Virus record (IMG/VR): IMGVR_UViG_3300038675_001017
Span: 1 to 24,690 of that record
Length of the DNA stretch: 24,690 nt
Direction: 5' to 3' (one strand)
Source: a virus
Taxonomy: Duplodnaviria; Caudoviricetes
A program made the position numbers and the translations under genes. Of the stretch, positions 373 to 19,377 are shown one piece after another. The stretch's first letter is position 1. Each line of letters starts with the position of its first letter. The notes below the pieces were generated by a model. It was not told the DNA's origin. It searched no databases and saw nothing but the letters and a program-made list of their open reading frames with translations.

Positions 373-867
373 TTACAGACTTGCCTTTATCTGCCCAACG
401 ATTTCTTTGGTCTCAACACTTTGCTTATCCTTGAGGGCATTATGCAGGTCTTCATTTTCAGTCGCTTTGGACTCTTTGATGGCGGCCACGGTTTGGCGCA
501 TAGCATTTTTCCATTTCATCACAAGTTTGACCAGCCAAACCATTGTCCCGCCCGGAAACAAAATCAAGCCAGCCACTAAAGCCAAAATTGCCAGCAGGCT
601 AAGACTCGAAAACCACCTTCCGATTCGTTCACCCAGCGTTAAATTATGAGGTGTATTTTTTAATCCAACCTGAAGCGTCCTCTTGGTCTCTTCAACCACG
701 TAAGTTTTATTATCCGCTACAATAGCTTTCGGTGTCTTGACCTCTTCCTCTAACCAGTTATAAATTGTCTCCGGCTTTTTGGGTGTTACAATCTTGGGAA
801 AAGAAATCCCCGCGCATCCGGACAACAATAAACTGACGGCTAAGATCATCAGTATTTTTCTCATCAT
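373..867 (-). CDS. Lipoprotein with a second, internal transmembrane segment; candidate unimolecular spanin
   Basis: Signal peptide MMRKILMILAVSLLLSGC with lipobox LSGC, about 65 polar residues, hydrophobic stretch SLSLLAILALVAGLILFPGGTMVWLVKLV, then a charged helical tail. Start overlaps the upstream stop (ATGA). Confidence 0.6.
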   Translation of the reverse strand: MMRKILMILAVSLLLSGCAGISFPKIVTPKKPETIYNWLEEEVKTPKAIVADNKTYVVEETKRTLQVGLKNTPHNLTLGERIGRWFSSLSLLAILALVAGLILFPGGTMVWLVKLVMKWKNAMRQTVAAIKESKATENEDLHNALKDKQSVETKEIVGQIKASL

Positions 868-1853
868 TTTTCACCCCGCTTTTTATTGGTTGCAATCAGC
901 TCTTCATAAGCGCTGATAATTTCATCAGCATCGTAATCCATGCATTTTGTGTTGTGAGGACAATTCCAAATCCCGGTGTTGGGATTGGCGTCAAAAACAT
1001 AACTGTCCGGCCGGTGACAAAACGGGCGCGGGCATGCTTCCCGCGTTAAATTCTTGTTAGCCTCATACCCAAGTTTTTTGGGATGCGTCCCTCCCCAAAC
1101 AACAACTCCTTTTTTATCAAATACTGCCGCGGCATGTTGCAGGAAACTGTCAATGCCGATAAACCCTTCCGCATATTTAAGCAACGCAACAACTCCCCTA
1201 ACCGGAGTGTTAGGAAAAAACATCCGCTCAGCGCCCTGAATATCGGGAAAATTTTCATGCTGAACAACGCCGACTGTATAGTTCCGTGATACCAGCTTGT
1301 TGGAAATTTTTTGAGCGACGTTATGCGGCAATGATCTCTTATGCATCCTCATCAACGCGTCAAAAACAGCCATCTGGTCTTTTGACTGAGGAACAATCCC
1401 TCCAATCCATTGAAACATGACAAATTTCTTTTTGCCGTTGCCTGTTATTTTTTCAACATACAACTTGCTTGCCTCAAGCTCATTGTTCATAAAAAACATC
1501 TGTGGAAGAGCGCCTCGCGGCTCAATTCCGATCATCCGGCACCACACCTCAATCAAATGCCTGCTATCAAACATATAGCCATAATTCGTGTACGGCTCCA
1601 GTTTGATAACGTAGCTTTCCGGCGTAACGTAATCGTCATAAAAATACAAAGGGTTCCCGAAGTTAAATACTTTATACACATGCGGATTGTATAAAAATAT
1701 ATCCGGATACCCGGTGACAACAATTATCCGCTTGTCAGGAAACTCCTCTGCCAGCCGTTTTACTACTGCAGTTGAAGCAATAACTTTTCCGACACCGCCT
1801 TCGGCTACGAAAAGGATGTTTTTAATTTTTTTGTTTTTTATTTCTGCAATCAT
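864..1853 (-). CDS. Glycosyltransferase family 9-like (heptosyltransferase-like, GT-B fold) protein
   Basis: N-terminal NILFVAEGGVGKVIASTAVVKRLAEEFPDKRIIVVT and C-terminal FIGIDSFLQHAAAVFDKKGVVVWGGTHPKKLGY resemble the WaaC/WaaF signatures. C-x4-C-x18-C-x5-C near the C-terminus. Confidence 0.8.
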   Translation of the reverse strand: MIAEIKNKKIKNILFVAEGGVGKVIASTAVVKRLAEEFPDKRIIVVTGYPDIFLYNPHVYKVFNFGNPLYFYDDYVTPESYVIKLEPYTNYGYMFDSRHLIEVWCRMIGIEPRGALPQMFFMNNELEASKLYVEKITGNGKKKFVMFQWIGGIVPQSKDQMAVFDALMRMHKRSLPHNVAQKISNKLVSRNYTVGVVQHENFPDIQGAERMFFPNTPVRGVVALLKYAEGFIGIDSFLQHAAAVFDKKGVVVWGGTHPKKLGYEANKNLTREACPRPFCHRPDSYVFDANPNTGIWNCPHNTKCMDYDADEIISAYEELIATNKKRGEK

Positions 1854-1879: not shown

Positions 1880-4800
1880 TTAACTATATGCAATGGCCAG
1901 CCAGTTCACGCACCCGTTGGGATCCAGAATTGTCTGGGTCCCGAACGTATCCTGAGTGCTGTAAAAACTGCAATAGGCGCAACTCCCAGCCGCACCACTA
2001 ACGCAACAATAACAGTGATAGACTGTCCCGCTGACGCACACCTGAGCGCTCATAAAGTGATGAAAACATAAAAATCCGATACTGCACTGCTTCCATCGAT
2101 CTCTGAAGCAGGTGCATATTTTAAAATTGTCATGGTTATAGGAATTGTTTAAACTTTTCGTCGTACTCTGTGACCAATTTGTCTTTCCCGAGTAGGTCAC
2201 AGTCACCCCACAACACCCGGCACTGACAGATCCTGAAGACCCGTAAAGATACGAACTTTCATTGGTTAAAAATTGAACTTCTGTCCCAACGCAACCGCAA
2301 GAACGCGTGTAATGGTTTAAACAGTAATAAAGGCAATTCCCAAGATCATTCAAGTTATACGTCACATAACTGCAGTATGTATTCGGGGGTTTGCTTCCGG
2401 ACACAGTCACAATATCCGTATGCCCACAACAGCACGTCCATTGATTGCACGTGCCCGTACAGCAACAACACCATGTTTGATTCCAATTAATAGAACACCC
2501 ATTGACTGTTCTTGAACATAAATGACATGTGGTTGATCCGCTTGCGATACCGGAATCAACCCACGCAAAACTTTGACAAATCGGCATGACCTCCCAAACA
2601 CAGTTACCGGAAAAAACAATGTTACGGTATTCATCGTTTGTTGACTGCATTTGCCCGACAGATGCATGAGGCTGAATATAGGTATACTGCTGATAGCACC
2701 ATACCCCACTGCCCTGCGCACGATAACATATCCTGTAAACCAAACATCCATAATGATAATTCGCACACGCCTGATTGCACCAAAGCTGAAACCTTAACCG
2801 GACACACGTCTCGCAAACATTCGCGCACGTACAACAAACTGTCCCGAAATTTACATCATGAACAACGGCTGAACCCGATGATGCCGCTAGGGATAACTGC
2901 GCATGAACATCAAAACGATACCCATAATCCGTTGCGCAATTACAATAAAACTCAGGCGTAGAACTGTAAACATCCCACTGCTGAGTCTGATTAGCATAAT
3001 TCTGATCAAACGAATTCAGTTTGTTAATACCAACCATAATGTTCGGCTGAGTACGCCACCCGGGCAGGAAAACTGTATCTCCTGTACAGGCTGTGCCGGA
3101 ACATATTCGTTTAACATACGGCGTAGATAACCCAAGCTCATCGTGAAAGTACCATGACCCTGCAGACAAATACGAATAGCAACAATCACAGGAAGGATCG
3201 ACCAGTTTCATTGACTTAGCCACAACGCATCCGTCGCACACCTCAAATGTTTTGACACAGTTTGCGTCATATGTTTTAAAACTCGTTGAATCAAAAATCG
3301 TTCTGGCGCCAGTGGCACCCGTCTGAAACGTCACGCCCTGAATTGTCCCGGCTGTCAAACACCCGACATTTGACGTCAACGCGCTTAAACACGCGACATA
3401 AATTTTGCGTGCCGTAATAACATTGTCACCTATAGCATTCTCATCCAAACCCTCAAGTGTTACAGTTAAAGGATTTGAAAACGGCCCAACGCCATAAAAA
3501 TCATGGCCTCTGACCTTAATTTCAAAACGGTCAAACACCATAAACGAATCGCCCGCCTCCGGCGTAACCGGCCAGTTCCCGTCAATCGTAATCGTTCCAG
3601 TTGTGCCGTCAAAATCCAGAATCTGAACTTCCTGGCCTTCGTTAACGCCTGATGTTATGATAACGGCATCGCCGTTTAATAAATCATCATCCAATCCAAT
3701 AAGAGAAGACGATACCAGCGTTGTGGATGTTGCCGAGTCAACGTCACCTCCTCTGGCTTTATTTCCTTCAATGACAGCACCGCGGCCGCTTGCGCTTGCG
3801 ATCAACTCCTCCTCACCTGCCCACTCTCCTGTTTGAGATTTCCAGATTTCGTATTTATAAACATCGCTTGCCGCAAGATCATCCCACCAGATCCGCGCCA
3901 CGTTGAAAAACACATCAGCACCCAGATTGTTTGGCTTGCTTGGGACTTCATTAACCGGAGTTAATGAAACACTATACGTTGAATACTTACCCGAAGTGTT
4001 ATACGCCCTGAGATAATATGTGCCAACTTCTCTGGTCGCAGGGCTTAAGGTAAGTTTTGTAGCAAGCCCGCGATAAACCAGATTGACATCATCAACACCA
4101 AAATTCGTATCATTTAATCGAATCTCATATCCTGCCAAATCAGGCTCTGTATTAGGCGACCATGAAAGCGTTAGTACATCGCCCCATGAATACTGAAAAT
4201 TGCTGACCATATCCGGCTCAACATCTTTTCCGACAATCAAGACGCTGTCCGTCGGTGAATGGCTCAAACCATCCTCTACTCCGTTAAATGTTACCGTTAC
4301 GGCTTTGATATAATACGTGCGCCCCTTTTGGATATTTCCGGAAATAGTATATTCCCGCGCCTCAGTGTATCCGATCAGCTGATAAGTGTTTCCTCCATCA
4401 TCGGAAAGATAAATCTTGGCTCCTTTGTATTTATTAAGATTGCCGGAATCATTTGGATAATCAAAGTAAACATCGATTACGTTTTCAATCGTTCCATCCG
4501 GAAGCGTAACTGAACGTTCTGACGTATCCAAGTTTCGGACAACTGGAATTTCTGAATTTAAAGAAGAATAATTGCTGGAAGGAATAACGATCGCACTGTC
4601 ATCATAAATATTCTCATCGTATTCAATCGCTGATATCTCGACCTCATCCTTGTTGTTGATACTTAAACCAACAATCCGAAAAGGCTTAACGACCTTGTTA
4701 TTTTCACCAAAAACATAAATGTCATATTTCTGCGGCAGCTGGTTAAACGCTTGTGAAACACCCAAAACCGAATGAACTCCTGCCTCATTGGTCACAACCC

Positions 4801-5863
4801 GCTCTTCGATTGAATCATCAGCAAACCTGACTTGAACCTTGTATGTTTTATCCGACTCAATCGTTACCTCCTGATCGAGTGTGACTGAGCTGATCGCGCC
4901 CTCGATCGCCCGTCCGGAAAAGCCCCACTGCGGCACATCATGAGAAACGTTAATCACGTCACCCGCCTGACAGGCAATCGCATCGATCCCGCATTTTAAG
5001 GTAATACTGCGGTCAATATATTTGGCGACTTTAAGGGCGTAGCGCCCTTCACGCAAGGCATACGAGGTCTTTGTCACAAACACCCTGATAAGTTTTGTGC
5101 GCATGGGATCCCCATTAGCCAACGCATCTTCATCAATAACCGCGATCTTTTCCTGCTGATAATTTTTATCTTTATCCAGATACTGAACCTCAATAACGTT
5201 TGGAATATCCCTTAAAGATTTCCACTGCTGACTAAATCCTCCTTCGATAATATTTCCCATACCGAATAACTGAACCGGGATGTCGGGCTTATCAATACGC
5301 GCCTTGGCTGTTCCTTCCGAGAAGAAAATCAGCCCCCGAAATACCCCGGCTAACTGCATCAACAAATCCGGAACCCGCGCGGGGCTGTCAATCACAACAT
5401 CCATCCGGAAGCGTTTCTCATAACCTCCCTGCCCATCCTCAACCCTTTCCTCACAGTAGCGCGACATCTCAAGAAACAATTCATCGTCGATATTTTCAGA
5501 TGTTAAAAATTCTCCGATCCCGTAGCGCGAGCTTAAAAGCAAATCTTTTAAACACCAAACTGGATTGGCGCACCATTGATCCACATAACTGGATCCATCC
5601 CAACTACACTCCGCCTCATCACTGAATCTTTTATAAACTGAATTTTCAGAATCCCAGTAATAATTAAGCCATTCAACCTCATCTACACCGCACATAATTT
5701 TAGGAACACTGACCTTTTTGCCCCTGACAATACAGGTAAAATTAGGCATGTTGCCTGAAAGCTGTTCTGTTGCTAATGCCTTGATTCCGAGTTTCGCGGT
5801 ATTCGGATAGGAAAGGTCATCTGCCTTGATCTCATCAATATTGCTTAACGAAAGATCGCCCAT
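1880..5863 (-). CDS. Tail tip / central fibre protein (lambda gpJ-like), main part, with FNIII-like domains and a Cys-rich C-terminal region
   Basis: gpJ-type motifs LSYPNTAKLGIK, VRGKKV, WCANPVWCLKDLL..SRYGIG, YCEERVEDGQGGYEKRFRMD, GDVINVSH and EISAIEYDENIY. Three FNIII-like segments (YYIKAVTV, YYLRAYNTSG, FEIKVRGHD). In frame with the upstream ORF across a single TGA at 5936-5938. Confidence 0.9.
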   Translation of the reverse strand: MGDLSLSNIDEIKADDLSYPNTAKLGIKALATEQLSGNMPNFTCIVRGKKVSVPKIMCGVDEVEWLNYYWDSENSVYKRFSDEAECSWDGSSYVDQWCANPVWCLKDLLLSSRYGIGEFLTSENIDDELFLEMSRYCEERVEDGQGGYEKRFRMDVVIDSPARVPDLLMQLAGVFRGLIFFSEGTAKARIDKPDIPVQLFGMGNIIEGGFSQQWKSLRDIPNVIEVQYLDKDKNYQQEKIAVIDEDALANGDPMRTKLIRVFVTKTSYALREGRYALKVAKYIDRSITLKCGIDAIACQAGDVINVSHDVPQWGFSGRAIEGAISSVTLDQEVTIESDKTYKVQVRFADDSIEERVVTNEAGVHSVLGVSQAFNQLPQKYDIYVFGENNKVVKPFRIVGLSINNKDEVEISAIEYDENIYDDSAIVIPSSNYSSLNSEIPVVRNLDTSERSVTLPDGTIENVIDVYFDYPNDSGNLNKYKGAKIYLSDDGGNTYQLIGYTEAREYTISGNIQKGRTYYIKAVTVTFNGVEDGLSHSPTDSVLIVGKDVEPDMVSNFQYSWGDVLTLSWSPNTEPDLAGYEIRLNDTNFGVDDVNLVYRGLATKLTLSPATREVGTYYLRAYNTSGKYSTYSVSLTPVNEVPSKPNNLGADVFFNVARIWWDDLAASDVYKYEIWKSQTGEWAGEEELIASASGRGAVIEGNKARGGDVDSATSTTLVSSSLIGLDDDLLNGDAVIITSGVNEGQEVQILDFDGTTGTITIDGNWPVTPEAGDSFMVFDRFEIKVRGHDFYGVGPFSNPLTVTLEGLDENAIGDNVITARKIYVACLSALTSNVGCLTAGTIQGVTFQTGATGARTIFDSTSFKTYDANCVKTFEVCDGCVVAKSMKLVDPSCDCCYSYLSAGSWYFHDELGLSTPYVKRICSGTACTGDTVFLPGWRTQPNIMVGINKLNSFDQNYANQTQQWDVYSSTPEFYCNCATDYGYRFDVHAQLSLAASSGSAVVHDVNFGTVCCTCANVCETCVRLRFQLWCNQACANYHYGCLVYRICYRAQGSGVWCYQQYTYIQPHASVGQMQSTNDEYRNIVFSGNCVWEVMPICQSFAWVDSGIASGSTTCHLCSRTVNGCSINWNQTWCCCCTGTCNQWTCCCGHTDIVTVSGSKPPNTYCSYVTYNLNDLGNCLYYCLNHYTRSCGCVGTEVQFLTNESSYLYGSSGSVSAGCCGVTVTYSGKTNWSQSTTKSLNNSYNHDNFKICTCFRDRWKQCSIGFLCFHHFMSAQVCVSGTVYHCYCCVSGAAGSCAYCSFYSTQDTFGTQTILDPNGCVNWLAIAYS

Positions 5864-5935
5864 TTTATAGGTGCTCGTATCATCGGAAACCCTTGTGATC
5901 CTGATATCATACTGATCCGGATCCAGTCCGTCTTT

Positions 5936-6862
5936 TCAGAAAATCCGACGGACAGCAGATCGTGATTTAGCGTTGATCGTGGTTTCGCCAAGATCAATAT
6001 ATGTTGAGGCGCTATGCGGTTTATATTCGACTTTGTAGATAACACTCCACGTCTCCAGCGCCCCGGTATTCTGGTTTTGTTCATACAAACCGTTTAATAA
6101 AACCAGATGCAATTCAAAGGCTTCTACATCCAGAGCGGTTGTGGTGTAAATATAGGGATTGTCTTTCAGTAATGTTTGTGACTGGGAAATGAGATTATGC
6201 AGGTCACCAAAATTTGGAATAACAGTATCATCGTTTGTGCCAAGGCGCGGATATTGCATAATTCCGTCAAAGTTTTCAGCAGGATTGTCATTGATCTTTA
6301 AATCACTGATGCTTTCAATTTCACCTTCACATAATGCGAGGAGCACATTAAGATAATTTTTATCGCCATCCGTACTGACAAAACTGTTAATGATATTTCC
6401 GCCGATCATATGCTCGCCGTAAACAATCGGCACCGGCACACCAACTTCCTGAATTGTCTGAACGCCATCCCATCCATACGTCGGTGAACTTTCATCCAGC
6501 CCGTCACCGTTAGTGCCGTAATTCGGCGTTGATGGTTTTTTAAATGTAACAGCCTGATAAACGCTGTAAACTACAGAAGCGATCGTGACAACCGTTGTGA
6601 TAATTTTAAAAACCGCAACAATCGCCGCCCAGGTCGCCGGATCAAACTGAACATCAGGAACGATCAAAATTTCATCCTCATTATTAATTTTAATATTTAA
6701 ATCATCAACTCTTTGACCGGAAACAATACAGCGCATTCCCTCATGCCGGAATCCTGACCTTTCAAGATATTCTTTAACGCAAACATCCCGATTAAAATCC
6801 AAAGAGATTTCTTCTCGTCCATCAAAAGAAAGTAAATTGGGGATATGCTTAACGGTAATCAT
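5936..6862 (-). CDS. Tail tip protein N-terminal part (gpI-like ubiquitin fold plus gpJ N-terminus), ending at an apparently premature TGA
   Basis: Likely start MITVKHIP at 6862 overlaps the upstream stop. Contains DEILIVPDV, a hydrophobic stretch, SPTYGWDG, GVPVPIVYGE and LALCEGEIESI. The frame continues after the stop as KDGLDPDQYDIRITRVS into ORF 1880..5863. Confidence 0.85.
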   Translation of the reverse strand: MITVKHIPNLLSFDGREEISLDFNRDVCVKEYLERSGFRHEGMRCIVSGQRVDDLNIKINNEDEILIVPDVQFDPATWAAIVAVFKIITTVVTIASVVYSVYQAVTFKKPSTPNYGTNGDGLDESSPTYGWDGVQTIQEVGVPVPIVYGEHMIGGNIINSFVSTDGDKNYLNVLLALCEGEIESISDLKINDNPAENFDGIMQYPRLGTNDDTVIPNFGDLHNLISQSQTLLKDNPYIYTTTALDVEAFELHLVLLNGLYEQNQNTGALETWSVIYKVEYKPHSASTYIDLGETTINAKSRSAVRRIF

Positions 6863-7269
6863 ATGCGTTCTTTCAACCGGTAAAATCCTTCGATACAATA
6901 ATCCCAGCATTTATCCCTAAGCCGGGAAACAACAACGCCCTTGGTTTTATGACTGCAATGCAGAAATTTCCAGTCACTTAACACAACCCCGCAATGCGAA
7001 ACCACCCCCTTGCGCTTAAACAAAACAACGTCGAAAGGCTTATGGTGACTGACTTTTTTCCACTGCCTGTAATGGTTCTCAATGAAGTGATTTTTGCCAT
7101 TTTCAAACCATTTTTCCTCATAATCCTCTATATCAAACAACTCATACCCCAAATCCTGATAGACATTTTTGACCAAGCCGTAACAGTCCAGTGCATCCAT
7201 TGACCTGCCCCGATGCTTAAACGGAATGCCAAGATATTTATTGATAATTGTTTTCTCTTGATCCCTCAT
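6859..7269 (-). CDS. NlpC/P60-family tail tip protein (gpK-like, no JAB domain)
   Basis: YLGIPFKHRGR, LDCYGLV (catalytic Cys), SHCGVVL and FLHC (His residues). Likely start MRDQEK at 7269 overlaps the stop of the L-like gene. Confidence 0.9.
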   Translation of the reverse strand: MRDQEKTIINKYLGIPFKHRGRSMDALDCYGLVKNVYQDLGYELFDIEDYEEKWFENGKNHFIENHYRQWKKVSHHKPFDVVLFKRKGVVSHCGVVLSDWKFLHCSHKTKGVVVSRLRDKCWDYCIEGFYRLKERI

Positions 7270-18560: not shown

Positions 18561-19343
18561 TTATGATCTCAGCCATTCATCATAATTTCCTTTAAACTGT
18601 CTGTCTTTTCTGGCTTTTAGATATTTTTCTATATTCACATCCTTCTCAAAAGTGTTATCTTTGGCCTCCCAACTGATTATATTTTCTCTGTGAAAAATTC
18701 GTGGCTCTTTTCTAAAATGACAATACGCATACACATGCCCATCCTCAACAAAATAAATATCAATATCTCGCATCGTTTTTTCCCATTTCCAGTCTTCTTT
18801 ATTGCGCCGTTGATATTCAATGGAAACTACTTGCTTTTTCTCTGCATAAAATAAAGCATCTTTTTTGCGGAATCTTTTGCCTTTCTTTTTTATCGGGATT
18901 TCTTTTCGATCTTTTTTGGGGATGCCATCAAAATAATTTTCCCGATTTCCTTGGATGATATTTTTAACAGCAATAAATGTTTTCGTTCCCTCTTTGCAAG
19001 TCCTGCTATCCCAAATCATGGATGTTAAGCGTTTCTCATTAAGAATAAAACTGACTAACTGATTTTTTAATCCAATCGACATTTCTTTGTCAGGGTTGAT
19101 CTTAAGCCACACATTTTTTGTATAATCATATACGACACGAATTAAATGAACCCTATGACGATCTGCCAGTTCTATAATCCTTTTGGGGATAGTAATTCCT
19201 TCATCAACCAAAGGCTTAATATCTTTATTAAAAAAGGCTCGCTCTCTTGCACTGATATTAAAGTCCGCATCCGATGAGCTCTTTTTACTTGAACTTATTA
19301 AAATTATTACGACTAAAATTAAAATGAAGTATATTACCCACAC
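18561..19343 (-). CDS. Membrane-anchored WYL-domain protein (AT-rich moron)
   Basis: Likely GTG start at 19343 after AAGGAGG. N-terminal TM WVIYFILILVVIILI. C-terminal VVSIEY...RDIDIY...VYAYCHFRKEPRIFHRENI fits the WYL pattern. AT-rich (18/60 G+C at 18601-18660). Confidence 0.75.
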   Translation of the reverse strand: MWVIYFILILVVIILISSSKKSSSDADFNISARERAFFNKDIKPLVDEGITIPKRIIELADRHRVHLIRVVYDYTKNVWLKINPDKEMSIGLKNQLVSFILNEKRLTSMIWDSRTCKEGTKTFIAVKNIIQGNRENYFDGIPKKDRKEIPIKKKGKRFRKKDALFYAEKKQVVSIEYQRRNKEDWKWEKTMRDIDIYFVEDGHVYAYCHFRKEPRIFHRENIISWEAKDNTFEKDVNIEKYLKARKDRQFKGNYDEWLRS

Positions 19344-19377
19344 ATCAACCTCCTTCATTTTAATAATATACAAAAAA

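Follow-up and report, generated by a model that had tools for sequence, protein, structure and literature searches.

A cysteine-rich tail-tip domain of tailed phages is paired with a GT9-fold enzyme and may be a target of S-glycosylation

Why is the end of a phage tail-tip protein crowded with cysteine? The question is raised by an open reading frame on the minus strand (positions 1880-5863) of the window, by which we mean the whole 24,690-nt stretch of viral DNA analysed here. The ORF encodes 1327 amino acids with a total of 61 Cys, and a first-pass annotation had described a sharp partition of these residues that our recount reproduced exactly: 53 lie in the last 503 residues (10.5%; positions 1883-3391, minus strand), none in the preceding 526 (positions 3392-4969) and eight in the first 298. 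The runs of Cys that it quoted are likewise present in the sequence. The last 503 residues differ strongly from the first 824 (Fisher p = 7.6e-16), and also from the window background of 51 Cys in 4793 residues of the 13 other ORFs (1.1%; binomial p = 5e-35). Both Cys codons are in use in the Cys-rich region (30 TGT, 23 TGC) and GC content is flat; we conclude that the excess is not an artefact of composition or repeats.

The length given earlier for this ORF was right, but the ORF is not the whole gene, since only one TGA separates it from ORF 5936-6910, which lies in the same frame. Together the two ORFs represent a gpJ-type central tail fibre, or tail-tip, gene of about 1676 amino acids (positions 1880-6910, minus strand), as indicated by matches to phrog_31 (E = 2e-106 and 3e-33 for the two ORFs), by PF13550 and PF24801, and by the length of full-length homologues (1630-1700 aa). 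Membership of gpJ is further indicated by the order of the domains scoring above cut-off (PF13550, PF24801, PF05100 and PF00877), which is the expected one (Phage-tail_3, FNIII-A; after gpL/gpK-like genes). At the apparent in-frame stop (positions 5936-5938, minus strand), homologues have Arg in 25 of 30 cases, and all four sequencing runs aligned to the stretch, the possible source run among them, disagree with the window at base 5938, where their letter gives an Arg codon. The TGA that splits gpJ is one wrong base in the assembly. Recoding of TGA and prophage decay are both rejected as sources of the split because the reads show an Arg codon; in addition, 12 further listed genes in the window end with TGA.

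The window comes from the record of a lambda-like tailed phage. Gene order appears to be terminase, portal, capsid, tail tube, tape measure, gpL-/gpK-like and gpJ, all on the minus strand; the head names are a reading from order and sequence. Between the terminase and head genes lies a moron-like gene of low GC content (33-35%; positions 18561-19373) with a weak WYL-domain match (E = 0.014). Named homologues of the tail protein come mostly from Omnitrophota genomes, which makes a member of Omnitrophota the likely host. The stretch is present in sequencing runs from bioreactor, sludge and biogas metagenomes, and no RNA dataset was among the runs listed.

The Cys-rich end defines a family. It is common to 43 of the 44 proteins found with the region, the 44th matching the entry segment only, and a profile search added further members. 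Clustering at 80% identity gave 102 non-redundant rows, 100 of which have a Cys content of 4.5-17%; the remaining two are Cys-poor (P0264, 1.4%; P0280, 0.4%). P0264 starts with a type I restriction specificity domain (PF01420) on a contig of 2954 bases and is possibly a chimeric assembly. In some phages the domain is fused to gpJ and in others to different N-termini of 100-500 aa, the non-gpJ proteins being 600-1000 aa long. We conclude that the domain is a movable tip module. One tail-tip gene is broken inside the domain (L021:2260-5556); near-identical records are whole. The C-terminal 530 aa had no match in Pfam, PHROG, NCBIfam, PDB sequences or INPHARED, and the ESM Atlas returned scores of at most 0.77 for the Cys-rich region. 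Locus searches with single sequences of the domain, the N-terminal part or the neighbouring enzyme (see below) returned nothing, and alignment-based queries were needed.

AlphaFold modelled the domain as an all-beta chain (pLDDT 71.8, pTM 0.39), for which Foldseek with the whole 532-aa model was uninformative (TM ≤ 0.19). ORF residues ~796-990 (positions 2894-3478, minus strand), which include the entry segment common to Cys-poor proteins, form short strands in the model and are predicted to make a trimeric beta-rich stalk. A trimer had been suggested in the first-pass annotation, and prediction of three copies of the first 325 domain residues lends it support: the score was 0.77, a value that likeness to solved fibres may raise, against 0.00 for the best of three controls, with interface residues 4-198, agreement between runs in at least 85% of contacts, and pLDDT of at least 76. 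In a calibration with two copies, 20 of 30 solved pairs attained the mark for this score, as did 1 of 23 single chains. A homotrimer of the first 325 residues is therefore supported by modelling. Beyond the stalk, the predicted head (positions 1937-2887, minus strand) consists of a beta-sandwich of ORF residues ~993-1110 and 1290-1309, with an inserted jelly-roll-like sandwich (~1110-1288) that is the most variable and most Cys-dense part of the domain. VIA-align matched the first sandwich to lambda gpJ 82-207 (Z 10.9, rmsd 3.5, 119 aligned) and, more weakly, to structures resembling carbohydrate-binding modules (CBM-like; Z 6.5-7); for the inserted sandwich Z was 7.9 or less. The stalk and the inserted head were modelled within the whole domain, and we claim no new fold. 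The models suggest that the region comprises a trimeric beta stalk and two beta-sandwich heads of the gpJ tail tip, and it is likely to be the receptor-binding end.

The gene that begins 26 bases past the tail-tip stop (positions 864-1853, minus strand) encodes a GT9/TibC-fold, glycosyltransferase-like protein of 329 aa. Its model (pLDDT 85.6) has a GT-B fold closest to WaaC/WaaF; the best fold matches include 3tov (Foldseek E = 9e-12), WaaF 1psw (7e-11) and 2gt1, and TibC 4rb4 was matched at 2e-8. The PF01075 score was 21.8 bits against a cut-off of 22, and models of heptosyltransferases scored far below their cut-offs (TIGR02193, 26 versus 185; TIGR04414, 15.4 versus 200 bits). In WaaC, the Asp that follows the first strand is the general base. 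The phage enzyme appears to have Lys23 at this position (GK for GD; positions 1785-1787, minus strand), an equivalence taken from the motif position and from a profile alignment to WaaF that is weak in this stretch (2.3 bits). Among 95 aligned enzymes the residue is Lys in 77, Arg in 14 and a gap in four, so that all 91 covering rows have Lys or Arg, whereas host GT9 matches mostly have GD. The DS-x-x-x-H stretch of the C-lobe is kept in the enzyme family. The model starts with a short helix followed by a Rossmann strand at residue 12, with no N-terminal beta-barrel. Four Cys (C274, C279, C298 and C304; positions 942-1034, minus strand), invariant in 17 of 17 close homologues and partly lost in distant members, lie in a part of low model confidence and may form a metal finger resembling the four-Cys iron finger of the dodecameric TibC/AAH enzymes. 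Judged by sequence and model, the protein is probably neither a standard GT9 enzyme, given the lost Asp base, nor a member of the BAHT family, from which score, barrel and base all separate it. A lipoprotein-like gene with weak spanin-type PHROG matches (positions 373-867) overlaps the enzyme's stop; a gene of this kind is also present after Cys-poor gpJ modules (L159).

Enzyme and domain are tightly linked. The enzyme lies after the domain in 36 of the 37 loci with downstream DNA (another 12 of the 49 loci end inside the gene), and the single exception has only 386 bases downstream. Once duplicates are removed, 24 of 24 distinct complete loci show this arrangement, in gpJ fusions and non-gpJ proteins alike. 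As a control we used sister prophages whose gpJ is close at the N-terminus but Cys-poor at its end. The enzyme was found in none of 33 such loci with at least 2 kb downstream, and in none of 38 whole records, which are mostly fragments (one of 38 at least 90% complete), compared with three of three positives; among 79 sister-prophage loci there was one weak match of the Asp type, upstream. Identities of enzyme and domain correlate (rho 0.60, 26 loci, 0 of 2000 permutations), but we do not count this as co-evolution because linked genes in kin correlate anyway. The loci are also related, and their counts therefore overstate the number of independent events.

When the search was run in reverse, starting from the enzyme, 83 loci were recovered; the Cys-rich domain is present in 21 and absent from 62. 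Another Cys-rich protein (at least 8% Cys in 150 aa) is encoded at 32 of these 62, representing 12 BLAST groups and 19 of 34 enzyme clusters, whereas a protein at this mark was found in only 3 of 60 control loci that lack a radical-SAM motif. The Cys-rich neighbours in reverse-search loci include YadA-like and peptidase-S74-ended fibres. The other 30 of the 62 loci have no neighbour at 8% Cys, which counts against coupling. Among 401 genomes of the host phylum, all three strong enzyme matches adjoin Cys-rich ORFs; around ordinary GT9 matches, by comparison, neighbours reach at most 6% Cys (14 host regions). Homologues of the enzyme occur in three cultured phages, S-SSM7, S-CAM1 and HTVC112P. 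In the cyanophages S-SSM7 (L051:7911-22794) and S-CAM1 (L052:8314-17339), the tail fibre is followed by three tandem genes with 8-12% Cys, and these by a Lys/Arg-type enzyme, a carbamoyltransferase and annotated heptose-pathway genes. In HTVC112P, a further point against coupling, the fibre next to the Lys-type enzyme contains just 14 Cys among its 756 residues.

Several other loci have features of their own. A 988-aa protein with long Ser tracts and 78 Cys is encoded at L071:11618-14584, close to the enzyme and also to a remote copy of the domain. Four large phage contigs (L094, L095, L107 and L123) encode repeat fibres of 1580-1680 aa with 101-149 Cys, about 4 kb or less from the enzyme, and in L095 the gene following the enzyme weakly matches NoeE (E = 4e-5). 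An ORF of about 100-120 aa with a hydrophobic start lies between fibre gene and enzyme, or after the fibre, at L014:9353-9655, L018:9537-9893, L027:1665-1976 and L048:996-1304.

The slot after gpJ has a second kind of occupant. Seventeen of 33 control loci have a small Cys-rich protein and then radical SAM genes, 15 have neither, and one has an enzyme motif only. Several of the radical SAM genes score best with the PapB model, below its cut-off. Modules of two or three such genes (PapB-like, one B12-type) follow gpJ at L136:12571-17144, L149:12646-15899, L166:5965-9181 and L181:8061-11634. From gene content, a Cys-rich protein in this slot appears to be accompanied by one or other candidate modifying enzyme wherever downstream DNA sufficed. 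Two alternative candidate enzymes, each with Cys-rich proteins at one slot, fit the idea that Cys is a handle for modification.

The Cys of the domain are predicted to be outward-facing free thiols, and we propose that the adjacent GT9-fold enzyme attaches sugar to many of them through sulfur (S-glycosylation), a reading whose chances we judge to be even. We reasoned that a base-less GT9 enzyme travelling with surface Cys is most simply an S-glycosyltransferase, and that Lys in place of the catalytic Asp, next to a Cys-rich tip, points to sugars attached to Cys. The enzyme's substrate would be the fibre as it assembles in the host cytoplasm, much as the TibA adhesin is the substrate of TibC. 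With no Asp base it would not activate Ser or Thr but could use a thiolate, which the Lys may stabilise. Each Cys would mark a sugar site, and single substitutions would add or remove sites. The donor would be an ADP-heptose-like nucleotide sugar supplied by the host; heptose is perhaps the best guess, based on gene context, namely the heptose genes of S-SSM7 and S-CAM1 and RfaE domain I, which scores above cut-off in two of two host genomes with the module. The sugar coat might serve host-surface binding, shielding or tip stability. Asp110 of TibC is reported to be required for O-heptosylation of Ser (PMC4358343), and in the plant enzyme PtUGT1 the base is reported to be needed for O-glycosylation but dispensable for S-glycosylation of thiophenol (PMC8819650), an acceptor with a pKa of 5.5 that is far more acidic than Cys. 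On a wider scale it is possible, at somewhat less than an even chance, that unrelated phages share a portable two-gene system, in which the Asp-to-Lys, GT9-derived protein is a dedicated protein S-glycosyltransferase and acquiring fibres evolve dozens of surface Cys as sugar sites.

The altered active site would also allow a different chemistry. The GT9-fold protein might act on Cys but transfer a sugar different from heptose or an ADP-linked group, or it might have no catalytic role and serve as a chaperone, protecting thiols while the fibre folds. A dead enzyme is compatible with the lost Asp, the heptosyltransferase models score far below cut-off, and at the same slot the Cys-rich tail-region protein of the sister prophages is accompanied by radical SAM enzymes, which points to the use of other Cys chemistry there. 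However, the presence of Lys or Arg in 91 of 91 rows, with DS-x-x-x-H kept, is more like a working active site, and heptose-pathway genes adjoin the enzyme in two cyanophages. We consider this explanation very unlikely.

The behaviour of the Cys themselves bears on another alternative, that the enzyme O-glycosylates fibre Ser/Thr (or extends a glycan, or modifies host LPS) with another base, while the tip is hardened after lysis by disulfides that cross-link its Cys within a subunit or between subunits. Ser and Thr make up 19% of the domain, so that O-acceptors are plentiful, which counts against S-glycosylation; TibC is reported to modify Ser (PMC4358343), and a siphovirus tail tube to be stabilised by disulfides (PMC13576161). 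A minority of the 53 Cys are also well conserved (conservation is at least 70% for 16 and at least 90% for six), and some of these may be structural. By contrast, 32 are conserved below 50%, and the median of 0.37 is lower than that of Gly, Tyr, Trp or Pro in the domain. Nor are Cys gained and lost in pairs: among 3321 pairs of 82 variable Cys columns none had phi above 0.8 and two had phi above 0.7, the Tyr control being similar. Cys-Cys contacts are absent from the 25 trimer contacts predicted with most confidence. Cys counts are even in only 56 of 102 rows, a weak test because the domain cuts were chosen by the analyst and some rows are fragments. The stretch was, moreover, found in bioreactor, sludge and biogas metagenomes, and the tracking of Cys richness by the enzyme across unrelated proteins would be left unexplained. 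We regard this alternative as unlikely. Conserved Cys pairs buried in an already described domain, the finding that the first-pass annotation had said would contradict it, were not seen, and fixed disulfides are disfavoured by the lack of co-varying pairs. The region does not appear to be a disulfide-rich domain, burial being judged from substitutions.

Exposed thiols could instead be ligands for metal (Fe, Zn or Cu), whether as ions or in metal-sulfide minerals, and so attach the phage to particles or to a metal-uptake receptor of the host, with the enzyme doing a separate job on the fibre. Surface-type Cys, CC and CxC runs and some His could hold soft metals with no fixed motif, and the habitat is anaerobic. 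The spacing of the Cys is irregular, as described before, and the depletion of CxxC argues against this: CxC (1.31 of expectation) and CxxxC (1.23) are over-represented and CxxC (0.83) under-represented, counts that related rows inflate, and this is as expected for one face of beta strands rather than for metal knuckles. CxxCH is absent from the query and occurs six times in 97 homologues. Consistent with the earlier dismissal of CxxCH heme and repeated Zn fingers, the motif counts disfavour multiheme, Zn-finger and Fe-S repeats. No set of ligands is conserved, phages of oxic marine habitats have Cys-rich genes paired with an enzyme of the same clade, and metal binding would explain neither the gene linkage nor the lost Asp. 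We consider it decidedly unlikely.

Where the Cys lie is suggested by the residues that replace them. Relative to background, Thr (2.15), Lys (1.81), Asn (1.78), Ser (1.66) and also Glu are enriched at Cys columns, and Leu (0.34) and Ile (0.48) are depleted; Ser and Thr are the most frequent substitutes. The mean hydropathy of substitutes is -0.71 for 113 domain columns versus +1.67 for nine Cys columns of the N-terminal part (p = 9e-4). The first-pass annotation had proposed that Cys stands where homologues have Ser or Thr, and this proved correct in part. In the two Cys-poor full-domain homologues, Ser/Thr occupy 34 of 89 Cys-column positions versus 170 of 781 elsewhere (p = 9e-4); in 89 Cys-poor proteins with the entry segment only, the Cys835 column has Thr in 49 and Ser in 25, and the Cys825 column has Thr in 22, Gln in 17, Ser in 17 and Glu in 15. 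Among polar residues, however, the bias is not significant: the Ser/Thr share of polar substitutes is 52% versus 44% within the family (p = 0.13), and in the Cys-poor pair it is 34 of 58 versus 170 of 335 (p = 0.32). Replacement specific to Ser/Thr is therefore not supported over and above a general polar preference. The stronger idea of a systematic exchange of hydroxyls is not supported either, given that Lys, Asn and Glu are enriched too and that Cys content does not fall with rising Ser+Thr (rho -0.10). We conclude that the Cys are probably laid over polar, surface-type positions in general and not over hydroxyls alone, exposure being judged from the substitutions.

Virion glycosylation and S-glycosylation are each already known; what this analysis adds is the family of Cys-rich domains with its controls. 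Known S-glycosylated proteins are few (PMC9877059), and S-glycosylation of the tip, if true, would be new chemistry for a virion. A tail-tip trimer bearing up to about 150 thioglycosides would amount to mass S-glycosylation of the virion by a natural, site-programmable enzyme for which Cys means sugar. It would account for a common oddity of environmental phage fibres, Cys at polar positions, give a function to a widespread unannotated clade of phage enzymes, and add a layer of host recognition that is invisible in genomes alone. A Cys-selective glycosyltransferase could also be used for protein labelling. Searches of openly accessible articles, supplements excepted, turned up neither a Cys-rich fibre described together with a GT9-like enzyme nor an S-glycosylated virion.

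The S-glycosyltransferases of glycocins are GT2 enzymes with a GT-A fold. Glycocins (sublancin, glycocin F, pallidocin, thurandacin) carry an enzyme-made sugar-Cys bond (PMC9877059), but they are small secreted peptides with one or few sites that bear Glc or GlcNAc, whereas the phage tip is a structural protein with tens of candidate sites and a GT-B enzyme. Virion proteins of the mycobacteriophages Che8, Corndog and Myrna are reported to be decorated by phage-encoded glycosyltransferases (Freeman et al. 2023, as cited in PMC12363180); the targets there are capsid and tail tube, and the part of that report consulted describes no pairing of a Cys-rich fibre with a GT9-fold enzyme. The modifications reported for marine phages are phosphorylation and acetylation (PMC12014285), and the Cys of gut phage capsids are reported to be mostly buried and conserved (10.64898/2026.07.03.736451).

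Lambda gpJ (phrog_31; PDB 8iyk) is matched by the N-terminal two thirds of the tail-tip protein, and gpJ 82-207 by the head sandwich; the C-terminal 530 aa, with no match in the databases of families and PDB sequences, differ from it and also occur on non-gpJ proteins. The enzyme shares with WaaC/WaaF (LPS core heptosyltransferases; GT9, PF01075) its best fold matches (3tov, 1psw, 2gt1) and the motif layout at the first strand and C-lobe, but it has GK or GR for GD and lies in tail modules instead of LPS clusters; host GT9 regions, unlike its loci, have no Cys-rich neighbours. TibC/AAH (BAHT; TIGR04414; PDB 4rap, 4rb4) is alike in its GT9-type GT-B fold (Foldseek E = 2e-8, TM 0.57), in its linkage to a beta-rich, adhesin-like target (TibA, AIDA-I) with many possible sites, and perhaps in a four-Cys cluster near the C-terminus, although the spacing differs in the phage enzyme. 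TibC differs in its Asp110 base, where the phage enzyme has Lys or Arg, and in its Ser target (PMC4358343); the phage enzyme also scores only 15 versus 200 with TIGR04414, has no N-terminal beta-barrel in its model, and has a Cys-rich virion protein as its putative target. By analogy, the phage enzyme resembles TibC in fold and in gene logic, with a predicted function on the protein encoded next to it.
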